64,000 nt of DNA from Bacteroidota bacterium. GTDB taxonomy: Bacteria > Bacteroidota > Bacteroidia > Bacteroidales > FEN-979. This document shows positions 2,733 to 52,015 of this stretch, one piece after another. A model generated the notes under the pieces. The model was not told the DNA's origin. It saw only the letters and a program-made list of their open reading frames with translations, and made no database searches. The stretch spans positions 8,668-72,667 of the forward strand of contig JBAXLI010000013.1 of the NCBI GenBank assembly GCA_037134895.1, written 5' to 3'. Each line of letters opens with the position of its first letter. Position 1 is the first letter of the stretch. Both the position numbers and the translations under genes were made by a program.

Positions 2733-2782
2733 AATACCGAGTAATGAGTATAATTATTCCATTTTCTTTTTTGTTACATTTG
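2733..2782 (+). promoter_or_regulatory. Candidate operator plus -7 box (site S6): AATACCGA-GTAA-TGAGTATA, then 22 nt, then TACATTTG
   Basis: The palindrome is at 2733-2752 and a TAnnTTTG-type box at 2775-2782, upstream of the OMP/DUF4136 gene cluster. It shares its architecture with six other sites in this window. Confidence 0.4.
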
Positions 2783-8652: not shown

Positions 8653-8702
8653 TATACCTACCAATGAGTATTTTTAAACGAAATTATCATACAGATGATT
8701 TG
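8653..8702. promoter_or_regulatory. Candidate operator (site S5): TATACCTA-CCAA-TGAGTATT, with a weak box ATGATTTG 22 nt downstream
   Basis: The palindrome is at 8653-8672 in the divergent region between the Omp85 gene and the paralog-pair/sulfatase genes. The -7 box is imperfect and the orientation is ambiguous. This is the weakest of the seven sites. Confidence 0.3.
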
Positions 8703-17016: not shown

Positions 17017-17065
17017 CAAAAATACGCGCATATCAAGTCATGAGCAATAGTTAACGATGAGTATT
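17017..17065 (-). promoter_or_regulatory. Candidate operator plus -7 box (site S1). Minus strand: AATACTCA-TCGT-TAACTATT G, then 20 nt, then TATTTTTG
   Basis: The box is at 17017-17024 (plus strand CAAAAATA) and the palindrome at 17046-17065. It lies about 37 nt upstream of the 155-aa gene start at 16980. Confidence 0.5.
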
Positions 17066-17090: not shown

Positions 17091-18053
17091 CTATCCTGCT
17101 GATCCGTCAGTCCGTCCAAAAGCCTCGTCAATCATAACCTGAAAGCGCTGAACAACTTCATTCGAAGGTGTTTTGTAATCGTCAAGTTCGTAAACTACAC
17201 CGAGCGATTCATACTTGCCAAGTCCAAAACGGTGATAGGGCAGCAGTTCATAATCAATCACATTCTTGTGCGGCTTGATAAATTCCAGTACACCCAGGAT
17301 ATGTTCATCATCGGCATTCACACCGGGAATCAAAGGCGTACGGGCAATAAAATCGATGTGAGGAAACGTTTCGTAGGCTTTTTTAAAATTGGCCAGAATA
17401 CGCTCGTTACCTACGCCTGTCCATTTTTTATGCCTTTCGGAATCCATCAATTTCAGGTCGTGAAGCATGGTATCAACATGTGGAAGTACTTTCTCGAGGA
17501 AGGACCAGGGAGCGTTACACGCTGTTTCGACGGCTGTATTGATTCCCCGGCTATGGGCTTCCTGCAGCAAAGCTGCTGCGAAGTCGGGTTGCAGCATAAC
17601 TTCACCTCCGCTTATCGTCATGCCGCCTCCGGTATTGCGATAGAAGGAAGCATCTTTTTCTACTTCTTCCATTACTTCGCCAACCGTCATTGTTTTGCCA
17701 AACATTTCGAGGGCGCCGGTGGGGCAAAGTGAGGTGATTTCTTCCGTAATGCCTTTGGCCAGCTGCCAGTTGACTTTTACCTTTGAATCGTCTCCCTCCA
17801 CAAAATAAAAAGCGCCTTCAGGAAATGGAGACTTAAGGCATATGCTGCATTCTTTTCCTTTGCACTTTTTGGGATCATAAGAAACCTCAGGCTTCATCCC
17901 TATGCTTTCAGGATTGCCGCACCATTTGCAACGCAGGGAACAACCTTTTATGAACACATTTGTGCGGATACCGGGGCCGTCGTGGCTGCAATACCGCTGG
18001 ATATTTAGTACACGGCCTGTTATATCCAATCTGTTATTTGTCTGATTTGTCAT
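17091..18053 (-). CDS. Glycyl-radical enzyme activating protein (radical SAM activase with ferredoxin-like insert)
   Basis: N-terminal GRE-activase fingerprint CSHDGPGIRTNVFIKGCSLRCKWCGNPES (CxxxCxxC). Extra Cys-rich region (KCKGKECSIC ... LCPTGAL). ATG 18053 is preceded by GGAGGG with a 7-nt spacer. The track starts earlier, at 18089. Confidence 0.9.
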   Translation of the reverse strand: MTNQTNNRLDITGRVLNIQRYCSHDGPGIRTNVFIKGCSLRCKWCGNPESIGMKPEVSYDPKKCKGKECSICLKSPFPEGAFYFVEGDDSKVKVNWQLAKGITEEITSLCPTGALEMFGKTMTVGEVMEEVEKDASFYRNTGGGMTISGGEVMLQPDFAAALLQEAHSRGINTAVETACNAPWSFLEKVLPHVDTMLHDLKLMDSERHKKWTGVGNERILANFKKAYETFPHIDFIARTPLIPGVNADDEHILGVLEFIKPHKNVIDYELLPYHRFGLGKYESLGVVYELDDYKTPSNEVVQRFQVMIDEAFGRTDGSAG

Positions 18054-18066
18054 GATTCTTCCCTCC

Positions 18067-19224
18067 TTATTTTCCAAGGTAAATACCAAGTGAATCCGCT
18101 ACCTGGAAAAACATGCTTTCAGAGGGTATCGTTCTTACTTTGTTGATGGCCTCGGCAAGTGGAACGAACTTAATATCCGGAGGAACAAACGCCACCATTA
18201 CCCCGTTTTTACCGGCTTCGAGCGCCTGAATGGCTCCTGCGCCGTAAGCCACACCCAACTGGCGATCGACTGCCGATGGTGCGCCACCCCTGACCCAGGG
18301 GCCGATTACCATTGGAAAAGTTTCTTCGGCTATCCTCAGTTGCAAGCCATCGGCAACTGCCTGTGCTGCCTGGCCTGACTTATGAATAACGAATTCACTA
18401 TTGGAATCACTGGATGCCAAAGGCGATAAAGAAGCTTTGAGAGAGGATACTTTTTCTTCTTGTTTCTTCTGATTCAAAATTTTTGCACCTTGAGCCACTA
18501 CTACCAGGCCCCAGGATTTTTTACCAAGCATTTTATTTTTAAGATGTGTTGCCACATTTTTCAAATCCACCGGAATTTCAGGAATCAGCACTGCATCGGC
18601 AGCAACGGCAATACCGGCCTGTAAGGCAATCCATCCGGCTTCCTCTCCCTGCACTTCGACCACTGCAATTTTATGGGCGGCCTTTGCTGCCAAACGCGCA
18701 CGGTCGAGCATGTCGATAGTAAAAGTAAGCGCCGTGTTGAACCCGAATGACACCGAAGTGGATGCAATTTCATTTTCGATAGAGCGTGGTACGCACACCG
18801 CATTCAATCCTTTTTTGTGAAGCTGGTAAAGAATACTCAGTCCTCTTCCGCCAACTATCGAAATTACAGCATCAATATTTTCTGCTTTTAATTTTACCAG
18901 CAATTCATCCGACATGTCAACTTCCTCCACCATTTCAAGTTCATTGATGGTGCGGACATTGAACGGATCTATCCTGGAAGACTGGCCGAGAACACTGCTT
19001 GTGTTCGGATCCATATTCAATACCCGCGGATCGATTGGAATTAATCCGCCATTGGGGTATTTTTCGGGATGAAGCAAGCCTTCAAATCCATCGCGGATGC
19101 CGACAAGTTCCCATCCCAATTTTCCGGCAGCAAGAGAGGCTCCTGCAACAACGGCATTTATCCCGGGAATGTAGCCGGCGCCTACCATAATGGCAATGCG
19201 TTTTTGTCCTGTATCTGTACTCAT
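18067..19224 (-). CDS. Phosphofructokinase-fold (PfkA family) protein with substituted catalytic residues
   Basis: Colinear with PfkA, but GGDAPGMN is GAGYIPGIN, GGDGS is GGRGL, GTIDND is RSIENE, MGR is QGE and GHxQRGG is GPWVRGG. The comparison is made from memory of E. coli PfkA. Confidence 0.7.
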   Translation of the reverse strand: MSTDTGQKRIAIMVGAGYIPGINAVVAGASLAAGKLGWELVGIRDGFEGLLHPEKYPNGGLIPIDPRVLNMDPNTSSVLGQSSRIDPFNVRTINELEMVEEVDMSDELLVKLKAENIDAVISIVGGRGLSILYQLHKKGLNAVCVPRSIENEIASTSVSFGFNTALTFTIDMLDRARLAAKAAHKIAVVEVQGEEAGWIALQAGIAVAADAVLIPEIPVDLKNVATHLKNKMLGKKSWGLVVVAQGAKILNQKKQEEKVSSLKASLSPLASSDSNSEFVIHKSGQAAQAVADGLQLRIAEETFPMVIGPWVRGGAPSAVDRQLGVAYGAGAIQALEAGKNGVMVAFVPPDIKFVPLAEAINKVRTIPSESMFFQVADSLGIYLGK

Positions 19225-19260
19225 AATTATTTATGATTGATTACTTCTCGTTCTTATGAA

Positions 19261-19293
19261 AAGTAAGGCATGACATATGGTCATGCCTTACTT
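19261..19293 (-). other. Intercistronic perfect 14-bp stem-loop between the GRE and PFK-like genes
   Basis: AAGTAAGGCATGAC, loop ATATG, then GTCATGCCTTACTT. Only a weak U-tract (TTTCAT) follows on the minus strand. Confidence 0.6.
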
Positions 19294-19311
19294 GTAAATC
19301 CTGGTTTTATT

Positions 19312-21729
19312 CTATTCACAACGCTGCAGGGTACGATCGATGATCTCGTTTTGTACACCTACGTGCAGTTTGGTGAAGAATGCGCTGAAACCGGCAACCC
19401 TGACCACGAGATCGCGGTATTTTTCGGGGTGTTTCTGTGCATCCCTGAGGATTTCGGTGTTCAGTACATTGAACTGGATATGGTATCCACCGTTATCAAA
19501 CAGCGTCTTGACCAGACGCAGCACATTATCCCGGCCTTTGCGGGTATCGAGCTGATCCGGTGGAAGCTTCATGTTCATGTGCGTTGCACAATATGCAACT
19601 GCATCAATTCCTTTTGCTCCAGACATTACCAATGCAGTCGGTCCGTTGACATCGGTGCCCGGCATGGCCGAGATACTTCCGTCGGTGAGCGCCACACCGG
19701 CCTTCTTGCCGTTCGGCAGCGCCCCGGTCACCATACCAAATGGGTTGTGGGCACTCTTGGTATAGGCATCGAGCGAGGTCTTGATGTCCTTGCTGATGTG
19801 GTTACCACCGCCATCCACATTGTTAAATGCATGCAAGATGGTGTTGTAAATCCGGCGGACAAACTTGTTTACTTCAGGGATGTCGTTGCCATGCTTGGGT
19901 GCTTCAAAACACATCTTCCCTATTTTAGCATATTCTCCCTCGAAGTTGGCAGCCAGGGCTTTTTTTAGTTCGGCCATAGTCACCTTCTTGTCGTCGTACA
20001 CCAGTTTCTTCACTGCCATCAGCGAGTTGGCCGCATCCACGCCTCCGATGGAGATCTGGGCAACCGTGTAGTAGTTGGCCCCGCCCTCCCAGACCTCTTT
20101 ACCGGTCTCGAGGCATCCGCCGGTCAGGACGGAGCGCCAGGCGCAAGGGAGGAAATCTGCCTGAAGGATGCTTGCAATCCAGGCTGAACGACGAAGCGTG
20201 TCCTCGCAGGCTTGAAGTTGCTTCTCGAATGCGGTATATAGTTCTTCGAAGCTTTTGAAGCTCTCAGGATCCCCGCTCTTGGGTCCTATCTGCTTCTTGG
20301 TGCGGGGATCGAAGCCGTTGTTCATCGTCAACTCGATGATCTTGCCGAGGTTGGGTTGGCCCTCCACCGGGTGACCAGTCTCATAAGGGATGTAGCTTCC
20401 CACACAGGCTCCGACGCAAGTACGTCGGGCTTTCTCTAACGGGAGATAACCATTCCTTTCGGTCCAGCCCCAAAGGTTCAGGGCCCGCTTCAACATCACT
20501 TCGGCATTCACGAACTGAGGCATGCCCATACCAGTACCTATAACATCGAGTACTTTTTCCAGGAATTTGCCGCTCATCTGCTCTGTATAGGCACACGAAA
20601 GCGGAGGTTGCGGCAGAGCGAGATAGGCTGCTGAATCCAGAATCACGTAGTCCATTTCGGCAGTGGCATCTTCACCATTCCCGGTATAACCGCCGAGGGT
20701 GATGCTCTGTCCCAGATCGGCGGAGTTCTGCTTAGCGATTCTCTCGCCATAGTAGTAGCCGATTTCATTCAGCTTGATGGAGAGATTCTGGAACATGTAG
20801 ACAGCATCGTCATAAGTAACAAGCCCGGCGGCCTTGTCGGCCTGATAGAATGGCTCCAGATTCTGTCCCAGGAAGGCTTCAGAGTACCCGCAGCCGATCT
20901 GCTCGAGTTCTGCCACGAGGTGACTGAAGAAGTGACTTTGGATTGCCTCCCTCAGATTCCGGGCAGGATGCTCGGGAACCCATTCGCAGGTTTCTGCAAT
21001 CGCGATCAACTCGGCTTTCCGGGCTTCATTTTTCTCTTTAGCAGCCATCTCCCTTGCCAACCCGGCATAACGATGGGCAAACCGGATCGCTGCTCTCATC
21101 ACGATGAGGGTTCCCTCATAGAAGTAGAACTTGGACATGTTTGGCATACGCATCTCGAGAGCCATCTGCCGTTCCTCTACCTCCTTGATTATGCTGGCAA
21201 GCCCCTCCCGGTAAACCCGCGGGTAGTTAAGATTGCCACCGCCGGCCGGCCAGTCAGAGAACGATCCAAAAAGGCCGGCGTCGGTAGATAGCTTTGGGTC
21301 GTATCCATATCGCTTCTGAAAAATCTCGTCGACCCGGGGTTTCATCGCACGTTTGCCCCAGTAGTCGAGCGCCCACTGGTTGGCCTTCTTATCTTCCGGA
21401 GTCGGCGACTTTTCTACCGTATTCTCTTCTATCATCCAATCCACCTGCCATTCGGGATAGGGGTACATGGCATTGGTCTTGCCGGCCATGGCGCCGACAA
21501 AGAGGTTGTCGTCGATATACAGTTTCTTACGATCCAGAACGGCTGCCAGGAATTTGGCACGTCGGAGTACCTGGTTATCTCCAGTGGTTTCCCCATAGAC
21601 ATCATGCATGATCCTAACCCGCTCGAAGTCGAGTTCAGGCTCCGTGCTCCTGAGTTGTTCTTTCAGCCGGTCGATACGCTTCGTATCGGTGTTGACCTTT
21701 GCTGTGAAAATGTTGCTTTCATTTGTCAT
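19312..21729 (-). CDS. Glycyl radical enzyme (PFL-fold), unassigned subfamily
   Basis: 805 aa from ATG 21729, with AGGAG 8 nt upstream. C-terminal fingerprint VVRVAGFSAFFTK. Candidate thiyl Cys in RRTCVGACVGSYIPYE. N-terminal IDRLKEQL...RAKFLAAVL...LYIDDNLFVG is typical of non-PFL GREs. The track ORF begins 32 codons earlier (21825). Confidence 0.9.
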   Translation of the reverse strand: MTNESNIFTAKVNTDTKRIDRLKEQLRSTEPELDFERVRIMHDVYGETTGDNQVLRRAKFLAAVLDRKKLYIDDNLFVGAMAGKTNAMYPYPEWQVDWMIEENTVEKSPTPEDKKANQWALDYWGKRAMKPRVDEIFQKRYGYDPKLSTDAGLFGSFSDWPAGGGNLNYPRVYREGLASIIKEVEERQMALEMRMPNMSKFYFYEGTLIVMRAAIRFAHRYAGLAREMAAKEKNEARKAELIAIAETCEWVPEHPARNLREAIQSHFFSHLVAELEQIGCGYSEAFLGQNLEPFYQADKAAGLVTYDDAVYMFQNLSIKLNEIGYYYGERIAKQNSADLGQSITLGGYTGNGEDATAEMDYVILDSAAYLALPQPPLSCAYTEQMSGKFLEKVLDVIGTGMGMPQFVNAEVMLKRALNLWGWTERNGYLPLEKARRTCVGACVGSYIPYETGHPVEGQPNLGKIIELTMNNGFDPRTKKQIGPKSGDPESFKSFEELYTAFEKQLQACEDTLRRSAWIASILQADFLPCAWRSVLTGGCLETGKEVWEGGANYYTVAQISIGGVDAANSLMAVKKLVYDDKKVTMAELKKALAANFEGEYAKIGKMCFEAPKHGNDIPEVNKFVRRIYNTILHAFNNVDGGGNHISKDIKTSLDAYTKSAHNPFGMVTGALPNGKKAGVALTDGSISAMPGTDVNGPTALVMSGAKGIDAVAYCATHMNMKLPPDQLDTRKGRDNVLRLVKTLFDNGGYHIQFNVLNTEILRDAQKHPEKYRDLVVRVAGFSAFFTKLHVGVQNEIIDRTLQRCE

Positions 21730-21805
21730 TTTGTTTTCTCCTTTGAATGTTTTTCTTATTTTTTTAAGGATTCTATTGCTTTTTAACTGCTTACTTTGGA
21801 TTTCA

Positions 21806-22345
21806 TCATCTGAGCAATTCTTCAAAATGGATGGCTGTTTGAGCCTGTTTCTCCAGAAGAGTATTTAATTCATTGGCCGTTCTGATCCGCCTTGCAACAA
21901 CCTCGGTCAACCCTTTACGGAAACTCTGGATGGTGTATTTGAAATTATTTTGATCGAAAATTTCGCACTTTACTATATGATCGGTTGGATTATCGCTTTC
22001 CTGTTTACATTCGTGACATGCCCCGTAAAGAGTTGTTATTTCATCTTTAACCGTCTGTGAAGTCCACGTGATCTCTCCATAACCTCCGAATTCATTGTGC
22101 CATAACTGGACCCACCTGCGGAGATCACAGCGCCAGCCTGAAATGGCTACCTGTATAGTATCGTCGATAACTCCTTCCCCCACAGGGACAATCAATCCAG
22201 GTTCGGTTCCCAGGGATGAAAATGTTCCCTGTGTTTTCGGCCAGTTGAAAACAACCTCACGCTGAAATTCCCCGTTTTTGGTAAGTTTGGCAATCCAGCT
22301 TCCCCCAAAAAAGTCACGAAATAATTTTGCCGTTAATTCAGCCAT
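21806..22345 (-). CDS. Hypothetical 179-aa protein with four Cys, first gene of the GRE operon
   Basis: Best start is MAELTAKLF at 22345; the track ORF extends to 22486 across the promoter region. Cys are at residues 73, 110, 113 and 127 (GACHEC). I recognise no family. Confidence 0.5.
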   Translation of the reverse strand: MAELTAKLFRDFFGGSWIAKLTKNGEFQREVVFNWPKTQGTFSSLGTEPGLIVPVGEGVIDDTIQVAISGWRCDLRRWVQLWHNEFGGYGEITWTSQTVKDEITTLYGACHECKQESDNPTDHIVKCEIFDQNNFKYTIQSFRKGLTEVVARRIRTANELNTLLEKQAQTAIHFEELLR

Positions 22346-22398: not shown

Positions 22399-22447
22399 CA
22401 AATGTACCGTGATCTAATACCAGGAACAATACTGACAGTTCTGTATT
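22399..22447 (-). promoter_or_regulatory. Candidate operator plus -7 box of the GRE operon (site S7). Minus strand: AATACAGA-ACTG-TCAGTATT G, then 20 nt, then TACATTTG
   Basis: A perfect TAnnTTTG box is at 22399-22406 (plus strand CAAATGTA) and the palindrome at 22428-22447. Spacing is identical to S1-S4. It lies 54 nt upstream of ATG 22345. Confidence 0.5.
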
Positions 22448-22452
22448 TTTAT

Positions 22453-22460
22453 TACATTTG
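22453..22460 (+). promoter_or_regulatory. Candidate -7 box (TACATTTG) for the LuxR-family regulator gene
   Basis: Matches the Bacteroidota TAnnTTTG consensus. It lies 37 nt upstream of ATG 22497 and only 5 nt from the S7 palindrome. Confidence 0.4.
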
Positions 22461-22496
22461 CAAGAAGTCAAAAGTAGAATAGGCAAATTTCATCTT

Positions 22497-23255
22497 ATGC
22501 ATAATACTCCCTATAGTTACAGCATATTTTTTGATTTTATTGAATCCTACCTGCCATCGGGGTTCCTTGATATTCATGCTGACGATCCTATCATGCTGAA
22601 GCTCGGGAATCTCATGGAAGAGAATGACCAGTTCTTCACTGTTTCAGATCTGGGGCAGATTAAATTCCTGTTTGCCAGTGAACGGATCCGGCAAATGATC
22701 GGGGTAGAGCCAAAAGAGCTTAATCCAGGGCATTTTGTGGAAGTCACCCACCCGGATGATCTGAGCCGGATGGGTTTGTTAAGGGCACAGACATTCATTG
22801 TGGAAAAGGAGGTATTGCAATCAAACAAGGGGAGTGCATTGGTGTCATTCACAATCAGGTTGCGCAATCCGGCCGGAATTTATTCTAATCATCTATGCCA
22901 GGCCTATTTTTTTTATTCTCCGGTTCCACGCCAGGTAGTTTATCTGATCCAGGTTATCAGCAATGTTGGCTGGTTCAAAATGAAAAAACAGGACTATCAC
23001 TATTATAAAGGAAAGGACTTATCCTATTTTAAATATCCTGATGAGGAATTGTTGAAGATGGGACCTCCTTTTTCCCAACGCGAGCTGGAAATCATCAAAT
23101 TGATTGAGGCGGGCCTTAGCAGTAAACAAATCGGGGAAAAATTATTCCTGAGCATGCACACCGTGAATACACATCGTTCCAATATTTTGGAGAAGTCAGG
23201 TAAATCACAAATTTCGGATCTGATTTACCACCTTAAGGAACAGGGACTGCTTTAA
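22497..23255 (+). CDS. LuxR/GerE-family transcriptional regulator with N-terminal PAS-like sensor domain
   Basis: C-terminal HTH: FSQRELEIIKLIEAGLSSKQIGEKLFLSMHTVNTHRSNILEKSG. The N-terminal ~170 aa have a PAS-like pattern (HPDDL...). The track starts at TTG 22458, inside the -7 box; ATG 22497 is preferred. Confidence 0.8.
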   Translation: MHNTPYSYSIFFDFIESYLPSGFLDIHADDPIMLKLGNLMEENDQFFTVSDLGQIKFLFASERIRQMIGVEPKELNPGHFVEVTHPDDLSRMGLLRAQTFIVEKEVLQSNKGSALVSFTIRLRNPAGIYSNHLCQAYFFYSPVPRQVVYLIQVISNVGWFKMKKQDYHYYKGKDLSYFKYPDEELLKMGPPFSQRELEIIKLIEAGLSSKQIGEKLFLSMHTVNTHRSNILEKSGKSQISDLIYHLKEQGLL

Positions 23256-25736: not shown

Positions 25737-25785
25737 TAAAAATACGCTCATATGCTGTCATTGACAATACTTAACACTCAGTATA
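25737..25785 (-). promoter_or_regulatory. Candidate operator plus -7 box (site S2). Minus strand: TATACTGA-GTGT-TAAGTATT G, then 20 nt, then TATTTTTA
   Basis: The box is at 25737-25744 and the palindrome at 25766-25785, upstream of the DszB-like gene. About 50 nt are nearly identical to S1. Confidence 0.5.
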
Positions 25786-25832: not shown

Positions 25833-28343
25833 TCATTCAGGGGACCTTTTGATTATATGATCTCCATCTTCTTTTTTATCTCCCTTGCCGTTAACTTCCT
25901 TGCGAATATGTACATCCTGCTGAGGAAAAGGTATGATGATCCCTCGTTCCCTGAAGAGGCTGTCAATTGAAACAATCAGATCACTCCTCACATCGAAGCC
26001 GATATCGAAATGCGGCACCCAGAATTTTAAGCTGATGTGTACCGAACTGCTGCTGAATTTGGTTACAAATGCAAGAGGTTGCGGATCCTTCAAAATCCGG
26101 GAATCATTTTGCATCAGGTCAAGTAAAAGGCGTTTTGTCTTGTCAAGATCCGTTCCATAGGCAACACCGAGTAGCAGTTCAAATCTCCTGTGACTGCTTC
26201 CCAATGTCCAGTTCACAAGGTGCTGGTTTAATAAATCACCATTGGGAATTATGACGTCGGCACCATCCCAGGTAGTGACGACGCTGCTTCGGATCCCGAT
26301 CGATTTCATCCTCCCTGTCTGCCCTGCAAATTCCACGATGTCTCCAACATTTACAGGCTTTTCAAAGGCAATGACAAGCCCGCTTATCAGGTTATTGACC
26401 AGGGTCTGTAAGCCAAAACCGATACCTACACTCACAGCTCCCAGGATTATGGCAAAACGGTCCATGGGGAATCCTGCTGCAATAAATGCCACCAAAACCC
26501 CTGCAGTGATTATGGCAATCCGAATCAGTACCAGCCAACTGCCAAGTCCACCTTTTTTAGAGTTTTTATGTATAGACATATTATCAGACGACAGGAACAG
26601 GACAATCCGGGAAATCAAGGCTGAAAGGAAGATAACCAGCATGAAGATGAGAATACTTTGGTAATTGAAAGAAAACATGCCAATCGTGCGGGTTGTTGTC
26701 AATGAATCTCGAAATGGCAGGAACAAAGTTTGAAAATAATAGGTACTCCGTAAGATCAGGACAAACCAGCCGGCGAAACAGATCAAATAATAGAAGAATG
26801 GTAGATCTTTACTGGCTTTTTCATCGGGTAATAAGCGTGTTTTTCCTTCAGATCCCTGGTAAAAATAAAAGGAGATAAGCAGGGTTTCGTTTACAAAGCG
26901 GGCAGTCCAAAAGAGTAAAACAACAATGAAAGTAAATATTCCATTGGTCATGAAGATTTTGGCTAGGTTAAAACCGCCGGTAAGATTAAAATAGATAGCC
27001 GGAATCTGAAGCAAGGCCAGCAATCCGATTAGCACAAAAATGATCCTGTCTTTGATTTCCTTTTTTTTCTTTGATACAAGGAAGAAGATACCTGCTGAAA
27101 CTCCTGAAAAACTCAGTAAAAGCATGCTACACAATTCGAATGATGAATGCCGTAAAATCAAATTACTGATCAGGGCAAGAAGGAATAAAAGAATGAAAAA
27201 CAACCAGGTTTTGAACAAGAACGGTGTGAACGATTTTTTTAAAATCAAAATAAGCGAAAATGTGATGAGAATCCAGATAACACAATTGAAAATAAAAGGT
27301 GGCAATGGAAGAAAAAACTGTGAAATGGTCAGGGAGATCAGGATTGCAGACGCCAAGGGGTTTCCTAACACATGTCCGCTACCGGTGAGGTGCCCATGGG
27401 ATCCCTCGTTGTTCACTTTTCGCCTCAGCATGAGCAGGTACAAGTAGAGTCCTAAGGCAAAAACAAGTATCAGAATAATTTTATCACGATGATTTACGCT
27501 ATAAAAAAATATTGCAAGTTTAGCCTTTCCGTATGAATAGGTAATGATCTGACCGAAAGGCCTGTCATTGATGAGGTTTTCTCCAAAAAAGCCGAGTTCG
27601 TTTGTCCTGAATTGCTGAAATACTTTTGAATGTAATGATTCCGTTTCAATAATATCTGATTCAAGTTCGAATTTAAGCAGGTTTACCTGGATCTCAAGTT
27701 TCTGAATGCTATCCAATGAAGTCTTGAGTTTCGTGTTAACGGGGTTGATATCCCGGGTCAGAAAGAGGAGTTTCTGCAGATAACTTGTCATGGAAGCTGA
27801 ATCGACCGGGACCTGGTATATTATACTATCCATGGCAAGAGAATCAAGCCTGGACTGTGAGTGACCTAATGATCTGTGGTAAGCCAATATTTGCTGCAGG
27901 CGGTTGTCCGTTCTCTTCAACAATTCGTTCAGGAGGCGGCTGGTTGTCGTAAGGTTAGGCACCGTCTGAATTTTGTCCTCATTTGTAATAACGCCATCAA
28001 CAGCCTGCTCTCTCCAGCGCGTTAACTGAATTAATTCATCCCTGATCTCATGATATTTAAAGCCGATCCTGAGAAAATTCCTTGCTTTCTCGATTTCATT
28101 TTTAAGCAGAAAGAAATTCCTGCTTTGTTTAAGAACCAACTGGTGTTGCCGGTAGTTTGCCTGGCTTTGTTTTAAACCCAGGTCAGCCAGATCTTTAGCC
28201 TTGCTTTGTTTGGCGTGCATTTCAAAATCCAGGGCATGGACCGAATCCACAAGAGGGATGCTTACCTGAGCAAAGCAAGTGAAGCAGTAAAATGCAAGAC
28301 AGAATGCGAAAATGCTGAAAAATAATTTACCAGGCTGGCTCAT
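25833..28343 (-). CDS. Large mechanosensitive channel, MscS family (MscK/KefA-like)
   Basis: 836 aa. Signal/periplasmic coiled-coil N-terminal domain and about 11 TM segments. C-terminal MscS core: LISGLVIAFEKPVNVGDIVEFAGQTGRMKSIGIRSSVVTTWDGADVIIPNGDL. Confidence 0.85.
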   Translation of the reverse strand: MSQPGKLFFSIFAFCLAFYCFTCFAQVSIPLVDSVHALDFEMHAKQSKAKDLADLGLKQSQANYRQHQLVLKQSRNFFLLKNEIEKARNFLRIGFKYHEIRDELIQLTRWREQAVDGVITNEDKIQTVPNLTTTSRLLNELLKRTDNRLQQILAYHRSLGHSQSRLDSLAMDSIIYQVPVDSASMTSYLQKLLFLTRDINPVNTKLKTSLDSIQKLEIQVNLLKFELESDIIETESLHSKVFQQFRTNELGFFGENLINDRPFGQIITYSYGKAKLAIFFYSVNHRDKIILILVFALGLYLYLLMLRRKVNNEGSHGHLTGSGHVLGNPLASAILISLTISQFFLPLPPFIFNCVIWILITFSLILILKKSFTPFLFKTWLFFILLFLLALISNLILRHSSFELCSMLLLSFSGVSAGIFFLVSKKKKEIKDRIIFVLIGLLALLQIPAIYFNLTGGFNLAKIFMTNGIFTFIVVLLFWTARFVNETLLISFYFYQGSEGKTRLLPDEKASKDLPFFYYLICFAGWFVLILRSTYYFQTLFLPFRDSLTTTRTIGMFSFNYQSILIFMLVIFLSALISRIVLFLSSDNMSIHKNSKKGGLGSWLVLIRIAIITAGVLVAFIAAGFPMDRFAIILGAVSVGIGFGLQTLVNNLISGLVIAFEKPVNVGDIVEFAGQTGRMKSIGIRSSVVTTWDGADVIIPNGDLLNQHLVNWTLGSSHRRFELLLGVAYGTDLDKTKRLLLDLMQNDSRILKDPQPLAFVTKFSSSSVHISLKFWVPHFDIGFDVRSDLIVSIDSLFRERGIIIPFPQQDVHIRKEVNGKGDKKEDGDHIIKRSPE

Positions 28344-28926: not shown

Positions 28927-28975
28927 TAAAAGTACATTCTTTCCTTACAATGTACAATACTTAATACTGAGTATT
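28927..28975 (-). promoter_or_regulatory. Candidate operator plus -7 box (site S3). Minus strand: AATACTCA-GTAT-TAAGTATT G, then 20 nt, then TACTTTTA
   Basis: The box is at 28927-28934 and the palindrome at 28956-28975, 24 nt upstream of ATG 28903. Confidence 0.5.
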
Positions 28976-38048: not shown

Positions 38049-38097
38049 CAAAGGTATTCCCGCATTGAAGCAGGCACAATACTGATAAATGAGTATT
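38049..38097 (-). promoter_or_regulatory. Candidate operator plus -7 box (site S4). Minus strand: AATACTCA-TTTA-TCAGTATT G, then 20 nt, then TACCTTTG
   Basis: The box is at 38049-38056 and the palindrome at 38078-38097, upstream of the PepSY-like/GH63/GH13 gene string. The flank CAGGCACAATACTGA is nearly identical to S7 (CAGGAACAATACTGA). Confidence 0.5.
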
Positions 38098-44005: not shown

Positions 44006-46507
44006 ATGGATCAGGATGAAAAAAACACAGTAAAGTCTGAGAACCTGAATGACATCAGGGTTGAAGAGCTTTTCGACCTTGACGACATTCAGCGGATGCA
44101 GGATTTATTCTCAGGAGCTGCTGGCGTTGCGTCATTGATTACTGCTGTTGACGGAAGACCATTGACAAGGCCCAGTAATTTCTGCAGGTTTTATACAAAC
44201 TATATCCTGACTCAGGAAAACGGTCTGACCAAAAACTTCAGACTTCAGCCCCAGGATGAACCACTTTCGGCATCTTTAAAAGAAAAGACTATTTCAAACG
44301 ACCATGGGTTTCTTGACGCCATTGCCCGGATAACAGTGAGAGGATGCCATGTGGCCAATTGGCTTATCGGCCAGGTGCGGACCAAAGATGTGAATTTGCA
44401 ATGGATGATGGAATTCTCCGATAATCTCGGGGCCGACCGTAACAAAGTCATTGAGGCTTTGAATGAAGTCCCGGTGATGACGATACAACAATTTGGAAAG
44501 GTGTCGGAGATGCTTGTCGCCTTTGCCAATGAGCTTGCACGAAACGCAACTGCCACCCAGTTGCTGAAACTTCAGGTTGCCGAGAAGGAGAAAGCAGTTA
44601 AATCACTTAACGAAAGTTTCCAGAGGAACAAAGCACTTCTTGATGCCATTCCCGACCTGATATTTATGTTTGATTCTGACGGCAGGTTTTTAGATTTCCA
44701 TGCCGAAAAGACTGATACTTTATTTGTCGACCCGGAGTTTTTCCTAGGAAAAAAGCCCGATGAAGTTCTCCCACATGAGCTTGCCATGCTTGCTAACAGA
44801 AGCATTAAAGCAGTGCATGAAAGTGGCAAACCTGATTATTGGACTTATAAGCTCGAGATAAGGGGCGACCTCCGCTATTACGAATCCAGAAGCGTTCCAT
44901 ACAGTAACGGGCAGGTGTTATGCATTGCCCGCGACATCACCGATCTGAGGAGATCCACAGAGCAGAAGAGAGAGAGCGAAGAAAGGTACCTGACTGTATT
45001 AAATGCTTCTCCCGATAATATCACGATAACCGACCTTGAAGGAAGAGTCACAATGTTCTCACCGGTTGCGATAAAGATGTTCGGTTATATCCATGAAGAA
45101 GACTATTTAGGTCACCCGGTCTTTGAGTTTATCCATCCCGAACACAGGGAACGTGCAGCCAATAATGTTGCGCTTATGTTTCAGGGAACTATGACTGGTC
45201 CGGCAGAATACCTGGGCCTTCGCAATGACGGCAGTACGTTTTATATTGAGGTAAACGCAGAGTTCATCCGCGGAGCAGATAAGCTTCCAAAACAGATTGT
45301 ATTTATCTGCCGTGATGTTACTGAGCGGAAAAATGCAGAGCTCAGGCAGGCAGAGATGTTTATTAAAATTGAGGAAGCGCGCGAAAAAGCCGAAGCCGGG
45401 AATCGTTTGAAAACTGCTTTCATGAATAATATCTCGCATGAGATCAGGACTCCGCTTAATGGAATCCTTGGTTTTACCGACCTGGTCACACAGCCTGATA
45501 TTAGCGAAGAGGAAAAGGAGAGGTTTTGTTCACTTATTAAAGCGAGCAGCAACAGGCTTCTTGGCACTATCACAAATTACATGGATATCTCCCTTATTGC
45601 TTCCGGGACCACGGAGGTTAAGAGTAAACCATTTAATCTGAACCGCTTTCTGAATCTCTTATTTGAACAATCAAAGCCTGTCTGCAATGAGAAGAACCTG
45701 GATCTCAGGCTTAAAATCCCTGTCCAGGCTAAAGCAGTGATCATTGACTCCGATCCTGAAATCATCCACAAGATAATGTCGCACCTGATTGATAATGCTG
45801 TCAAATTCACGCAGAGGGGAGAAATTTCATTTGGCTATGAGTTAAATAAAGGGATCTGTACATTGTTTGTAAAAGACAGCGGGATTGGAATCGGTAAGGA
45901 TTCACTTTCAGCCATTTTTGAGAGTTTCGTACAGGAAAAACTCTCATCCACAAGCGGCCATGAAGGCAGTGGTTTGGGATTATCGATTGCACAGGGAATG
46001 GTTAACCTGCTTGGGAGCAAGATAGAAGTTGAGTCAGAAAAGCATTCAGGTTCAAGGTTCTTTTTTAAACTTCCATTCAATGAATCTGCAGATGAACAAT
46101 TAAGCAAGCCTGCTGTCAATCACGCAATGACTTCTGCAAGGTCTCAACTCATCCTTATTGCTGAAGATGACGATGCAAATTTTGAATTAAGTCATGCTAT
46201 GCTCCGGAAAAGTAATGTGAAAGTTATAAGGGCAAGGAACGGTTCAGAAGCTGTCGCTCAATGTCGTGCCAATCCTGAAATTTCACTGGTTCTTATGGAT
46301 CTTAAAATGCCGGGACTGGATGGCTTGCAGGCCACCCGCGAGATCAAGTTGTTCAGAAAATCTCTCCTGATTATAGCAATCACTGCCTTTGCCCTCAGCG
46401 GCGATGAAAAAAGAGCTATTGAAGCAGGTTGCGACGATTATATTGCCAAACCCGTCGTGAAGGAAGTTCTGCTCGGAAAACTTAGAAGATACGGCATCGG
46501 TATGTAA
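44006..46507 (+). CDS. Hybrid sensor histidine kinase/response regulator with N-terminal PocR-type sensor domain
   Basis: PocR-like N-terminus (LDDIQRMQDLFSGAAGVASLITAVDGRPLTRPSNFCRF), two PAS regions, H-box FMNNISHEIRTPLNGI, HATPase (GSGLGLSIAQ) and a C-terminal REC domain (LIAEDDD...DLKMPGLDG). Confidence 0.85.
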   Translation: MDQDEKNTVKSENLNDIRVEELFDLDDIQRMQDLFSGAAGVASLITAVDGRPLTRPSNFCRFYTNYILTQENGLTKNFRLQPQDEPLSASLKEKTISNDHGFLDAIARITVRGCHVANWLIGQVRTKDVNLQWMMEFSDNLGADRNKVIEALNEVPVMTIQQFGKVSEMLVAFANELARNATATQLLKLQVAEKEKAVKSLNESFQRNKALLDAIPDLIFMFDSDGRFLDFHAEKTDTLFVDPEFFLGKKPDEVLPHELAMLANRSIKAVHESGKPDYWTYKLEIRGDLRYYESRSVPYSNGQVLCIARDITDLRRSTEQKRESEERYLTVLNASPDNITITDLEGRVTMFSPVAIKMFGYIHEEDYLGHPVFEFIHPEHRERAANNVALMFQGTMTGPAEYLGLRNDGSTFYIEVNAEFIRGADKLPKQIVFICRDVTERKNAELRQAEMFIKIEEAREKAEAGNRLKTAFMNNISHEIRTPLNGILGFTDLVTQPDISEEEKERFCSLIKASSNRLLGTITNYMDISLIASGTTEVKSKPFNLNRFLNLLFEQSKPVCNEKNLDLRLKIPVQAKAVIIDSDPEIIHKIMSHLIDNAVKFTQRGEISFGYELNKGICTLFVKDSGIGIGKDSLSAIFESFVQEKLSSTSGHEGSGLGLSIAQGMVNLLGSKIEVESEKHSGSRFFFKLPFNESADEQLSKPAVNHAMTSARSQLILIAEDDDANFELSHAMLRKSNVKVIRARNGSEAVAQCRANPEISLVLMDLKMPGLDGLQATREIKLFRKSLLIIAITAFALSGDEKRAIEAGCDDYIAKPVVKEVLLGKLRRYGIGM

Positions 46508-49238: not shown

Positions 49239-49360
49239 AAATACGGGATATCAGTTTAAGAAAATAAAGATAGCAAATCCGGACTAACTGGTATTTTTAT
49301 ATTTTTGTGATGGTTATTAAATTTTGTAAAAATCCGGATATTGATTTTCATACCTGATTA

Positions 49361-52015
49361 ATGGAATACGCACCTGGAATGTTTGACGAGCAAACTGACA
49401 TTATAATCGGAGGAATTCAGTTTTCTGACCTCTTTGACCTTAATGAACTTCAGAAAATCCAGGATCTTTTTTCGGATGCCACAGGCGTTGCTTCAATTAT
49501 TACAAGGCCCGACGGAACACCAATCACCAGACCCAGCAACTTTTGCAGGCTTTGTAACAATATTATCCGTCAGACCGAAAAAGGATTACATAACTGCTTC
49601 AAATCAGATGCCGTGATCGGGCGTCAAAGTACTTCCGGACCTGTTATCATGCCATGCCTGAGCGGAGGCTTATGGGATGCAGGAGCCAGCATTACTGTCG
49701 GAGGCCAGCATGTTGCGAACTGGCTTATTGGCCAGGTCAGGAACCAGGAGCTGGATAAAGAGAAGATCCTGCATTATGCCGATGAGATCGGTATTGAGCG
49801 TGCTGTTTTCATGAATGCCCTGGAGGAAGTCCCTATGATGTCACTGGAGCGGTTTACAAAGATCGCCCACATGCTTTATGCCTTTGCCGCAGAACTGTCG
49901 TCAAAAGCATACCAGACCAAGAAGCTTGAGCAGTTCATAGGTTTCAGGCAGCAGGCTGAGAAAAGCATTTCACGGCTTGAAAGTCGTTTCAGGGCACTTA
50001 TTGAGAATTCTACCGAAGGAGTTGTACTTGTAAGCGCCGGGGGAAAATTTGAATATGTGAGCCCGACGGCCCTTAGACTTTTCGGATATGCTTCCGATGA
50101 CATATTACACAGTGATCCTGATGCAATGACACATCCGGAGGATTTACCGATGGTTCTTCAAACCCTGAATTACCTGCTTCAGAATCCATTAAAAGTTCCA
50201 ACAATACATTACCGCTTCAGGCATCGTGACGGGAGGTGGATCTGGATTGAGAGTACCTTCGGAAACATGCTTCATATTCCTGAAATCAATGCTATTGTAA
50301 TTAACTTCAGGGATATTTCTGAACGTAAGCGCAGTGAGAAGATCCAGGAGATACAATATAATATTGCGAGTGCAGTGGTCACTTCGGGAAATCTCGAAGA
50401 GCTTCTCACTATTGTGCGCCGCGAATTAAACCAGGTCATCGATACTACAAATTTCTTTATCGCGCTTTACGACAAGCAAAAAGACATGCTTTCGAAGGCG
50501 ATATGGGTTGATGAGAAAGATGCCTACACCCGATGGAAAGCCGAAAACTCGTTGTCGGGCCAGGTTGTGAGGAAAGCCCGCACAATATTACTGAACAGGC
50601 AGCAGATCAGAGAATTTGCCGTAACTGAGAATCTGAACCTTATCGGCACAACTGCCGAAAGTTGGCTTGGTGTTCCCTTATGGCAGTCGGGACAGGTGGC
50701 AGGAGTCATGGTTGTCCAAAGCTACACCGATCCTCAGGCATATGATAAAAGCAGTGCCGCGCTCATGGAACTGATCGCCCATGAGTTGAGCATTTTTATT
50801 GAAAAGAAAAAAACTGAAGACGAGCTGGTCAGAGCGAAAGAAAAAGCAGAAGACAGCGACAGGCTGAAATCGACTTTTCTTGCAAACATGTCGCATGAGA
50901 TCAGAACACCCATGAATGCGATTATTGGTTTCTCTGGTATGATTGCCGATTCGGACCATTCTCAGGATGAAAGGATCAAATTCGCCAACATAGTACAATC
51001 CAGGTCAGACGACCTGATGCATATCATCAATGACCTGCTTGAGATATCACGCATTGAATCAGGGAATGCAACTGTAGTCAAAGGAACAGTTGTTCTTAAT
51101 GACCTTATCGATGACCTTGAATCTGAGTTCCGGAGAAGGATTCTTCTGAACAAGGCTGAAACTATCAGGCTGATTGCCGATAAGCCGCTTGACTCTGCTC
51201 AGACCAGGATCTTAACCGACTCGTATATCCTGAAACAGGTATATTCAAACCTGGTCGAGAATGCGATTAAATACACTGATTCGGGTCATATCATTTTCGG
51301 CTACCGCCCGCCTGAGAATGGCACCATCACCTGCTTCGTGAAAGACACCGGGATCGGGATCTCCCCCGAAAACCAGGCTGTGATCTTTGAACACTTCAGG
51401 CAGGCCGACATTTCGGATCCTCACCGTTACGGAGGAACAGGCCTTGGCCTGGCAATCTGCAAAGGCTCGCTGGAACTTCTCGGCGGGACGATCTGGGTTG
51501 AATCCAAACCAGGTGCAGGAAGCACGTTTTACTTTGCATTTCCTTTTGAACCTGCCCCGGCACAGGAGCACAAGCCGGCTCCGAAAGGTATTCAACTTAA
51601 AAAAACACCCGGTTATTCATGGAAAGGCAAGAGGTTGCTGATCGTTGAAGACGAAAGTGCAAATATGGAATTCCTGATGATCATCCTCAGGAACACTGGA
51701 GCCGAAACTGTAGGCGTTACATCAGGCGCAGAACTCAGGAAACATTACAACTCTCTACATTTGTTTGATCTTGTGCTTCTGGATGTGAGATTACCGGATG
51801 CAAACGGATGGGAACTGGCAAGTGAAATCAAGGCGGTCAGACTTGATATCCCGGTTATCGCGCAAACCGCATTCGCCATGTCAGGCGACAGAAGAAAAAG
51901 CGAGGAAGCCTCCTGTGACAATTACATTTCAAAGCCTATTGCCAAACATGCCTTGCTTAAGATGCTCGACGGCTACCTTGATGACGGAGTCAACAAATCC
52001 ACTATTCCTGCCTGA
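49361..52015 (+). CDS. Hybrid sensor histidine kinase/response regulator with PocR, PAS and GAF domains
   Basis: PocR-like N-terminus with Cys motif (LNELQKIQDLFSDATGVASIITRPDGTPITRPSNFCRLCNNIIRQTEKGLHNCFKSD), then PAS and GAF (WLGVPLWQSGQVAGVMVVQSY), H-box FLANMSHEIRTPMNAI, HATPase and REC. Confidence 0.85.
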   Translation: MEYAPGMFDEQTDIIIGGIQFSDLFDLNELQKIQDLFSDATGVASIITRPDGTPITRPSNFCRLCNNIIRQTEKGLHNCFKSDAVIGRQSTSGPVIMPCLSGGLWDAGASITVGGQHVANWLIGQVRNQELDKEKILHYADEIGIERAVFMNALEEVPMMSLERFTKIAHMLYAFAAELSSKAYQTKKLEQFIGFRQQAEKSISRLESRFRALIENSTEGVVLVSAGGKFEYVSPTALRLFGYASDDILHSDPDAMTHPEDLPMVLQTLNYLLQNPLKVPTIHYRFRHRDGRWIWIESTFGNMLHIPEINAIVINFRDISERKRSEKIQEIQYNIASAVVTSGNLEELLTIVRRELNQVIDTTNFFIALYDKQKDMLSKAIWVDEKDAYTRWKAENSLSGQVVRKARTILLNRQQIREFAVTENLNLIGTTAESWLGVPLWQSGQVAGVMVVQSYTDPQAYDKSSAALMELIAHELSIFIEKKKTEDELVRAKEKAEDSDRLKSTFLANMSHEIRTPMNAIIGFSGMIADSDHSQDERIKFANIVQSRSDDLMHIINDLLEISRIESGNATVVKGTVVLNDLIDDLESEFRRRILLNKAETIRLIADKPLDSAQTRILTDSYILKQVYSNLVENAIKYTDSGHIIFGYRPPENGTITCFVKDTGIGISPENQAVIFEHFRQADISDPHRYGGTGLGLAICKGSLELLGGTIWVESKPGAGSTFYFAFPFEPAPAQEHKPAPKGIQLKKTPGYSWKGKRLLIVEDESANMEFLMIILRNTGAETVGVTSGAELRKHYNSLHLFDLVLLDVRLPDANGWELASEIKAVRLDIPVIAQTAFAMSGDRRKSEEASCDNYISKPIAKHALLKMLDGYLDDGVNKSTIPA

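Follow-up and report, generated by a model that had tools for sequence, protein, structure and literature searches.

A PAS-LuxR protein as candidate binder of a conserved 20-bp box at a divergent glycyl radical enzyme operon in Bacteroidota

Which protein reads the 20-bp palindrome that lies between a regulator gene and a glycyl radical enzyme (GRE) operon in a Bacteroidota genome, and what would its binding do to the genes that diverge from there? The question arises in the window—the whole 64,000-nucleotide stretch analysed here, positions 8668-72667 of contig C13 of genome G000 (4.7 Mb in 191 contigs). In it, a gene on the plus strand (22497..23255) encodes a one-component regulator of 252 amino acids (aa) with an N-terminal PAS and a C-terminal GerE (LuxR-type) domain, assigned from Pfam and from a profile match to the solved chain 3clo_A. 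The original prediction had named this PAS-LuxR protein as the candidate binder of the palindrome, termed S7, and comparative genomics lends support to that choice. On the evidence set out below, we consider it probable that the protein binds S7, activates the divergent operon of o21806, GRE, PFK and activase genes together with a local regulon, and represses its own gene.

The palindrome and its recurrence upstream of related genes

S7 (AATACTGACAGTTCTGTATT, 22428..22447) is a 20-bp box with a 7-2-7 core, TAC-N10-GTA, in which seven of the ten position pairs are complementary (1-5 with 16-20, 7 with 14 and 8 with 13). It lies in a divergent intergenic region of 151 bp, between the ATG of the regulator gene at 22497 and the start of a 179-aa gene at 22345 on the minus strand. 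Towards that gene, a -7 element for the promoter of the o21806-GRE operon, CAAATGTA (reading TACATTTG on the minus strand), occupies 22399..22406, leaving a gap of 21 nt to the box (22407-22427); towards the regulator gene, the -7 element of its own promoter, TACATTTG on the plus strand at 22453..22460, follows after 5 nt. Both gaps were confirmed by script, and the coordinates and the 21-nt and 5-nt spacings of the original prediction all proved correct when read against the sequence. The -7 element of Bacteroides promoters spans about -12 to -5, and taking the two elements to do so places the centre of the box near -43.5 for the target genes and near -28 for the regulator's own promoter. A riboswitch or leader structure in the spacer was considered and set aside: Rfam gave no match within the 151 bp at E up to 1, and no stable fold was found for the leader (z-score 0.53).

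S7 is one of a cluster of similar boxes. The pattern AATAC-N10-GTATT, with at most one mismatch, matched 10 times in the window, against a shuffle mean of 1.67 (sd 1.26) and with none of 100 shuffles reaching 10. Seven of these matches are intergenic (2733, 8653, 17046, 22428, 25766, 28956 and 38078), all seven fall within 36 kb around the regulator gene, and they have inner positions in common, giving the consensus AATACTnA-N4-TnAGTATT, with TAC at positions 3-5 and GTA at positions 16-18 present in 13 of 14 half-sites. At six of the seven boxes, four of them with an exact match, a -7-like element (TAnnTTTG, at most one mismatch) stands at 21 or 22 nt towards the downstream gene; the chance of such an element at 20-22 nt from a random position is 1.6%, and that of an exact match 0.09%. 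The matches at 36225 and 46852 lie inside open reading frames (ORFs) and were not counted as boxes, nor was 49276-49295 (AATCCGGACTAACTGGTATT), an intergenic and weakly palindromic stretch scoring below 12, between a 635-aa gene (minus strand) and the second of two PocR kinase genes (plus strand).

The boxes other than S7 stand before genes of varied kinds. One (AATACCGAGTAATGAGTATA, 2733..2752) precedes genes for an outer-membrane beta-barrel protein, a DUF4136 protein and a B12-radical-SAM protein, with TACATTTG at 22 nt on the plus side, and another (AATAGTTAACGATGAGTATT, 17046..17065) precedes an operon of a 155-aa gene, a CoA-disulfide reductase/rhodanese gene and a SulP gene, with TATTTTTG at 21 nt on the minus side. 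The box at 25766..25785 (AATACTTAACACTCAGTATA) lies before an SsuA/NMT1-like gene and that at 28956..28975 (AATACTTAATACTGAGTATT) before the gene of a 174-aa membrane protein, their -7-like elements at 21 nt being TATTTTTA and TACTTTTA, each with one mismatch. Between a 185-aa gene (minus strand) and DUF2254 and Omp85 genes (plus strand) lies AATACTGATAAATGAGTATT (38078..38097), with TACCTTTG at 21 nt on the minus side. Only the box at 8653..8672 (TATACCTACCAATGAGTATT), between a 493-aa BamA-like gene (minus strand) and genes for 221-aa, 213-aa and sulfatase proteins (plus strand), has no -7-like element at 21 or 22 nt.

Scored with a matrix built from the seven boxes, nine sites in the genome reached at least 19, namely the seven, one inside secY (C44:12611) and one overlapping the start region of a TetR-like gene (C171:1792). 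With a second matrix, built from 32 boxes of other genomes, the window sites ranked 1, 2, 3, 5, 7, 9 and 17 genome-wide and S7 second, a ranking that counts for less in favour of our interpretation because those boxes were first picked with the window-trained matrix, so that the second matrix is not fully independent. The secY and TetR-like hits were rejected as sites, as were matrix hits on contigs C136, C15, C1, C17, C123, C63 and C26, all of which fall within long open frames and lack a -7 element at 19-23 nt. A separate intergenic sequence on contig C4 (AATAGTGATTCATCACTATT, 25971-25990), followed on the right, after 21 nt, by TAATATTG (one mismatch), is a possible further regulon member.

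The same arrangement recurs at homologues of the regulator in other genomes. Among 40 relatives, full-length homologues were found in few genomes only, namely G006 (an orthologue of 86% identity and a paralogue of 47%), G007 (two full-length and one partial) and G011 (one), while G013 and G023 gave weak or broken matches. In species-representative genomes, a scan yielded 38 loci of 40-86% identity. For comparison of upstream regions we assembled 75 tblastn matches of at least 200 residues from 43 loci of other genomes, which gave 60 proteins of at least 200 aa, 13 matches being dropped because they offered no usable in-frame ATG or lay at a locus edge. A box scoring at least 15 lies within 250 nt upstream of 42 of the 60 homologues and within 120 nt of 41, typically 45-55 nt before the ATG, and most of the 13 dropped genes likewise have one just upstream; at this threshold the background is 27 hits in the whole of G000. 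As a control, 27 loci of ordinary LuxR-type genes (L004-L030) gave two box hits, one of which (L016, in G033) belongs to a remote member of the family that shares the divergent layout. Scanning metagenomes with the paralogue returned 32 further loci, and 21 of the 27 analysed have a box (at most two outer mismatches, within 140 nt upstream), in most cases 38-68 nt from the ATG.

Spacing is conserved along with the box. Among 38 distinct boxed regions, a -7-like element lies exactly 21 nt off on the divergent side in 30 (14 exact, 16 with one mismatch) and 5 nt off on the regulator side in 22. The conserved form across homologues is AATACYGA-N4-TCRGTATT, and a column profile over 25 distinct o21806-linked regions reads tCAAAnTTA-(21)-C-AATACtGAc.t.TCaGTATt-TTT.tTA.tTTtg. 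The orthologous box in G006 is AATACCGACCATTCTGTATT, 50 nt upstream of that regulator's ATG. Gene order, box, spacings and their conservation are thus read directly from the genomes. Two variants of the arrangement were also seen: tandem pairs of boxes in G007 (L035 7925-7976 and L036 953-1004), 32 bp apart from start to start and with the variant half-sites AATACCTA and AATACCCA, and a 19-bp form upstream of 5910 in locus L045 (AATACTGAATATCAGTATT), one base shorter in its centre and with the usual 5 nt to the -7 element.

The original prediction had proposed asking whether orthologues of the regulator occur together with the motif and the GRE operon, and they do: besides the box, present within 120 nt in the proportion given above, an o21806 homologue is the divergent neighbour of 33 of the 60 homologues, and GRE, PFK and activase genes come after it wherever the contig continues. 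In a maximum-likelihood tree of the 60 proteins (quick search, LG+G4), two clades received SH-aLRT support of 100 each. Clade A, with 37 rows, includes the window protein and all 33 of the o21806-linked homologues; members of clade B are divergent from an SsuA/NMT1-like or DUF2254 gene or lie downstream of another paralogue, and its subclades have one box variant each. A single locus frequently contains two to four paralogues, with a separate box some 50 nt ahead of each ATG. The boxes of the two clades overlap too much at positions 6-9 to be told apart.

The candidate binder and other proteins that could occupy the boxes

The regulator has the composition expected of a PAS-LuxR protein, an N-terminal PAS fold and a GerE domain combined in a single chain of some 200-260 aa. 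A Pfam scan placed GerE at residues 191-242 (E 9.4e-15; 54.4 bits against a cut-off of 23.5), a C-terminal DNA-binding domain that assigns the protein to the LuxR/GerE-type helix-turn-helix (HTH) superfamily PF00196, with HTVNTHRSNIL as its recognition helix. The N-terminal half is less clear-cut, and speaks to that extent against the assignment, in that its PAS_3 match (E 8.2e-5, 23.2 bits) falls slightly below the cut-off of 25.6. We accept the PAS fold despite this because a profile of 47 regulator homologues matched 3clo_A over residues 38-234 (E 3e-15) and, weakly, the PAS domains of ARNT/HIF, and because the ESM Atlas, in its own model, gives PAS_3-labelled structural neighbours of the regulator at TM 0.65-0.71; the PAS-like N-terminal domain of the original prediction is thereby backed. 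Many solved GerE domains were also matched by the 47-homologue profile. No Response_reg match was found in the regulator at E up to 0.01 in the Pfam scan, in which PF03472, the autoinducer-binding domain, was likewise not among the matches at E up to 0.01, and NCBIfam response-regulator models matched its HTH part only, with scores far below their cut-offs. A homodimer prediction scored 0.11 against a mark of 0.42, which counts neither for nor against a dimer. Among 862 candidates, a database search with the regulator retrieved 610 proteins at E up to 0.001, and the source names of these relatives are only 'hypothetical', 'CsgD family', 'PAS domain-containing' and 'LuxR C-terminal-related'.

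Does the box track this protein among genomes? Within the genus, counts of the pattern were set against those of a reversed-pattern control, giving 19 against 2 in G000, 14 against 2 in G006, and 0-7 against 1-6 in nine other genomes—an excess, that is, only in the two genomes with the orthologue. In G007, five of the seven matches cluster around its three paralogues, at distances of no more than 13 kb. Target genes are shared as well: boxes precede the G006 homologues of the beta-barrel gene, the 185-aa gene, the CoA-disulfide reductase gene and the NMT1-like gene, and the G007 homologues of the 155-aa and 185-aa genes. Most of these boxes hold the 21-nt spacing, including that of the 185-aa gene in both genomes; the box of the G006 beta-barrel gene is AATACTCACAAATAAGTATT, where the 21-nt position lacks a -7-like element. 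Of 201 genomes sampled evenly from the order, only five contained the family at E 1e-30, and these may overlap the genomes of the species-representative scan; in three of these holders a box with at most one mismatch lies 34-50 nt upstream of four of six full-length genes.

Several results weigh against assigning the boxes to this family. Across the 201 genomes, box counts do not separate family holders from non-holders: the excess over control was largest in G000 (+17) and stood at +4 to +7 in the holders G107, G118, G176 and G179, and at +15 in G099 and G189. Whole-genome pattern counts were too noisy in this sample and were discarded as an order-level test of co-occurrence. Yet G099 and G189, which have no family member at E 1e-30 and only HTH-level matches to the family profile, do contain boxes of the form AATACCWA-N4-TWGGTATT (L079, L080, L082-L085) with -7-like elements 20-21 nt off, standing before genes that we named, by reading their translations, as FeoB-like, ferredoxin-domain, DUF2249-like and outer-membrane genes; such boxes suggest that other proteins may use sites of this kind. 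A single good intergenic box, lying in an unrelated gene cluster, occurs in each of G009 and G004, which have no full-length regulator, although their box counts stay within the control level for those genomes. Moreover, 18 of the 60 homologues have no box scoring at least 15 within 250 nt, some of them being second genes of tandem arrays, and a change from N to Y in the recognition helix is accompanied by no change in the box, which is the same in N and Y relatives. On balance, the two in-silico checks named in the original prediction, co-occurrence of orthologues with the motif and operon and the distribution of the motif among genomes with and without the regulator, came out mostly in its favour. 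In G004 (L010, contig C312, about 1501-1721) we also noticed a remnant of a PAS-LuxR gene, with residues 8-32 and 203-252 in adjoining frames, which looks like the product of an internal deletion.

These observations raise the alternative that another factor, of the GerE family or of a different kind, binds the boxes and that the PAS-LuxR gene is merely a conserved member of the regulon. The G099 and G189 boxes, with their 20-21-nt geometry before feoB and other genes, would fit it, as would the order-level counts that do not follow family presence and the failure to find any covariation between helix (N or Y in TVxTHR) and box. Against it, each paralogue in arrays of up to four has a box of its own some 50 nt before the ATG, boxes cluster at the regulator gene in both G000 and G007, genus members without the family show no excess, and the ten other GerE proteins of G000 differ in their recognition helices. 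A Crp/Fnr-type binder, which the original prediction had kept as an alternative, fits poorly. CRP and FNR sites carry TGA and TCA triplets 6 nt apart (TGA-N6-TCA), against a gap of 4 nt in the box, whose core matches the NarL 7-2-7 site instead, and no protein with a Crp-type domain was found among the 43 window ORFs scanned. We regard a different binder, such as a GerE-type factor from outside this family, as possible in principle but very unlikely.

A second question is which member of the family serves which box. G000 has exactly two, and the other, encoded outside the window on contig C73 (3374-4199, locus L089), shares 47% identity with the window protein. The box of this second gene, TATACTCGACGTTAGGTATT, scores only 13.3-16.7 and is followed by TAATTTTG after 5 nt and by the ATG after 50 nt. 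The two proteins could divide the sites, the clade-A window protein serving S7 alone and the C73 paralogue, by itself or jointly, the other six. Such a division is suggested by several features of those six: in other genomes SsuA/NMT1-like and DUF2254 genes are divergent from clade-B paralogues, the former with a box between; homologues of the 155-aa and 185-aa genes are boxed in G007, which has clade-B members and in which no clade-A member was found; and the six mostly end in ATGAGTATT, like clade-B boxes, whereas S7 is of the GA...TC form frequent in clade A. Yet the helix TVNTHR(S/R)N is common to both clades, TVYTHRRN being confined to the C73 subclade, whose low-scoring box was described above; the closest clade-A relatives, too, show C or T at position 7 of the box; and the six boxes flank the window regulator, not the C73 gene. 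A split of this kind is possible though rather unlikely, in our estimate. Our assignment of S7 to the window protein is made with good confidence, and that of the six other window boxes more weakly.

Direction of control and the genes under it

If the window protein is the binder, the geometry offers a view of what it would do. A dimer of the 252-aa PAS-GerE factor would bind the box in the 151-bp divergent region. With the box centre near -43.5, the bound dimer would activate the GRE operon in a class-II-like manner, and it is from this position that activation appears most likely; the invariant 21-nt spacing favours it too. On the other side the centre near -28 would put the same bound protein over the regulator's -33 region, for which reason repression of its own gene is the most likely outcome. 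By extension, the seven window boxes would define a local regulon of outer-membrane proteins, a sulfatase, SulP, the CoA-disulfide reductase-rhodanese and the SsuA-like protein. Binding, dimer state, the sign of regulation and the transcription start sites are what we infer from the conserved layout.

The main alternative to activation is repression by competition with sigma for an overlapping -33 element. In this case the PAS-LuxR protein would bind the box and repress the GRE operon as well as its own gene, until a PAS ligand released it. Bacteroidota promoters are expected to have a -33 TTG 20 nt before the -7 element. A G directly follows the box at five of the seven window sites, creating TATTG with its TTG at just this distance, and the operon side of S7 abuts such a TTG; a bound protein could thus block sigma there, as it could on the other side, where the box overlaps the regulator's own -33 region. 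It also tells against our interpretation that the fixed 21-nt spacing may arise in part from a double role of the box end and the G after it, which would also act as the -33 element, an arrangement that could suit a repressor equally. However, spacing as strict as that seen in 30 of 38 regions, and at 21 or 22 nt in six of the seven window sites, is typical of activators that touch RNA polymerase. Known regulators point the same way: according to PMC10853779, NarL activates yeaR from the same centre, -43.5, with the same abutment of the -35 element, and according to PMC9774167 the Streptomyces PAS-LuxR site lies in the -35 region of controlled genes. We judge repression of the GRE operon unlikely, and retain activation by the PAS-LuxR protein as the preferred interpretation.

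The operon that would be activated lies entirely on the minus strand. Its first gene, o21806 (21806..22345), encodes the 179-aa protein, which has no Pfam or NCBIfam family and matched only 'hypothetical protein' clusters in the Atlas. The GRE gene (19312..21825) is of the PFL2/glycerol-dehydratase type (Pfam PFL-like 1.7e-140, Gly_radical 1.2e-27), its product falling below every NCBIfam equivalog cut-off. The PFK-family gene (18067..19224; Pfam PFK 1.6e-58) sits between GRE and activase in most related loci as well, and the GRE activase, a radical SAM protein (17091..18089), scores 316.9 bits with NCBIfam TIGR02494 against a cut-off of 174. The GRE (17091-22345 for the whole group) is always accompanied by the 179-aa protein without a family and the PFK-family protein, and the neighbouring genes of the putative regulon show a sulfur theme (sulfatase, two SulP, CoA-disulfide reductase-rhodanese, SsuA-like). 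Contigs from RNA libraries (four runs, two sediment studies) match 19300-21711, most of the GRE frame, at 90-99% likeness and leave o21806, the intergenic region and the regulator nearly uncovered. These sediment RNA libraries therefore contain GRE-like sequence, mostly from relatives, a finding distinct from transcription of the window locus itself.

Two observations stand apart from this system. Farther along the window, at 44006-46507 and 49361-52015, are the genes of two hybrid histidine kinases with N-terminal PocR, PAS and/or GAF, and receiver domains and no DNA-binding output, and between them lies a pair of crcB and DUF190 genes. Elsewhere in G000, many contigs (for example at C13:229, C45:78-85, C6:113 and C86:2150) carry head-to-tail runs of the 7-mer AATATTS, several of them near contig ends, suggesting that a dispersed repeat interrupts the assembly.

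Relation to known regulators

The PAS-LuxR architecture and a 7-2-7 site abutting an upstream promoter element are kinds already known. In the literature searched, we found no paper on this regulator family, its box, the 21-nt geometry or the link to GRE in Bacteroidota. We tentatively propose, as a possibility that falls short of a probable case, that these proteins form an undescribed, Bacteroidota-wide PAS-LuxR family, arranged in arrays of up to four members with their own variants of a 20-bp 7-2-7 box; that they may build a cross-talking or cascade circuit switching on the GRE pathway and envelope- and sulfur-related genes in anoxic freshwater sediment; and that the 21-nt distance may be the first defined class-II-type activator geometry at -33/-7 promoters. 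What the locus offers is an uncharacterised regulator family paired with a precise operator and a fixed promoter geometry. This opens to test the switch of the GRE operon, the contact between activator and RNA polymerase at Bacteroidota -33/-7 promoters, and the means by which paralogues whose recognition helices are almost identical stay specific for their own targets. With its signal identified, the pair of box and regulator might also be turned into a compact inducible part for Bacteroidota.

A close counterpart among solved structures is 3clo_A, a 258-aa 'Transcriptional regulator' that we take to be from a Bacteroides species; the match spans sensor and HTH, and its helix TVNRHRQNIL is close to TVNTHRSNIL of the regulator. 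In LuxR and TraR, a GerE HTH recognises a 20-bp inverted repeat, the lux box, near -42.5 and activates a divergent or adjacent operon. The window has the same combination of a GerE HTH and a 20-bp inverted repeat beside a divergent operon, and differs in that no autoinducer-binding domain was found in its regulator.

PimM, PteF and CfaR of Streptomyces resemble the window protein in architecture, with an N-terminal PAS domain, a C-terminal LuxR HTH and a palindromic operator in the -35 region. As PMC9774167 describes it, that operator is a 16-bp palindrome, CTVGGGAWWTCCCBAG, in the -35 region of the controlled genes. The conserved box does not match this sequence, being AT-rich and 20 bp long, and the two systems differ further in phylum and in the antibiotic gene clusters to which the Streptomyces proteins belong.

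NarL and NarP of E. coli offer a close parallel in operator form. According to PMC10853779, their 7-2-7 sites consist of two 7-bp elements 2 bp apart, and a single such site in yeaR (TAACCAATAAATGGTA), centred at -43.5 and just upstream of -35, is enough for activation. The window boxes show this NarL/FixJ type of 7-2-7 inverted repeat, and both systems combine a GerE HTH, the core TAC-N10-GTA and a single site near -43.5 abutting the upstream promoter element (PMC10853779). In contrast to NarL and NarP, the window regulator has no receiver domain, which suggests control by its PAS domain and not by phosphorylation, and its palindrome extends to 20 bp (AATAC...GTATT) and is set at -33/-7 promoters.

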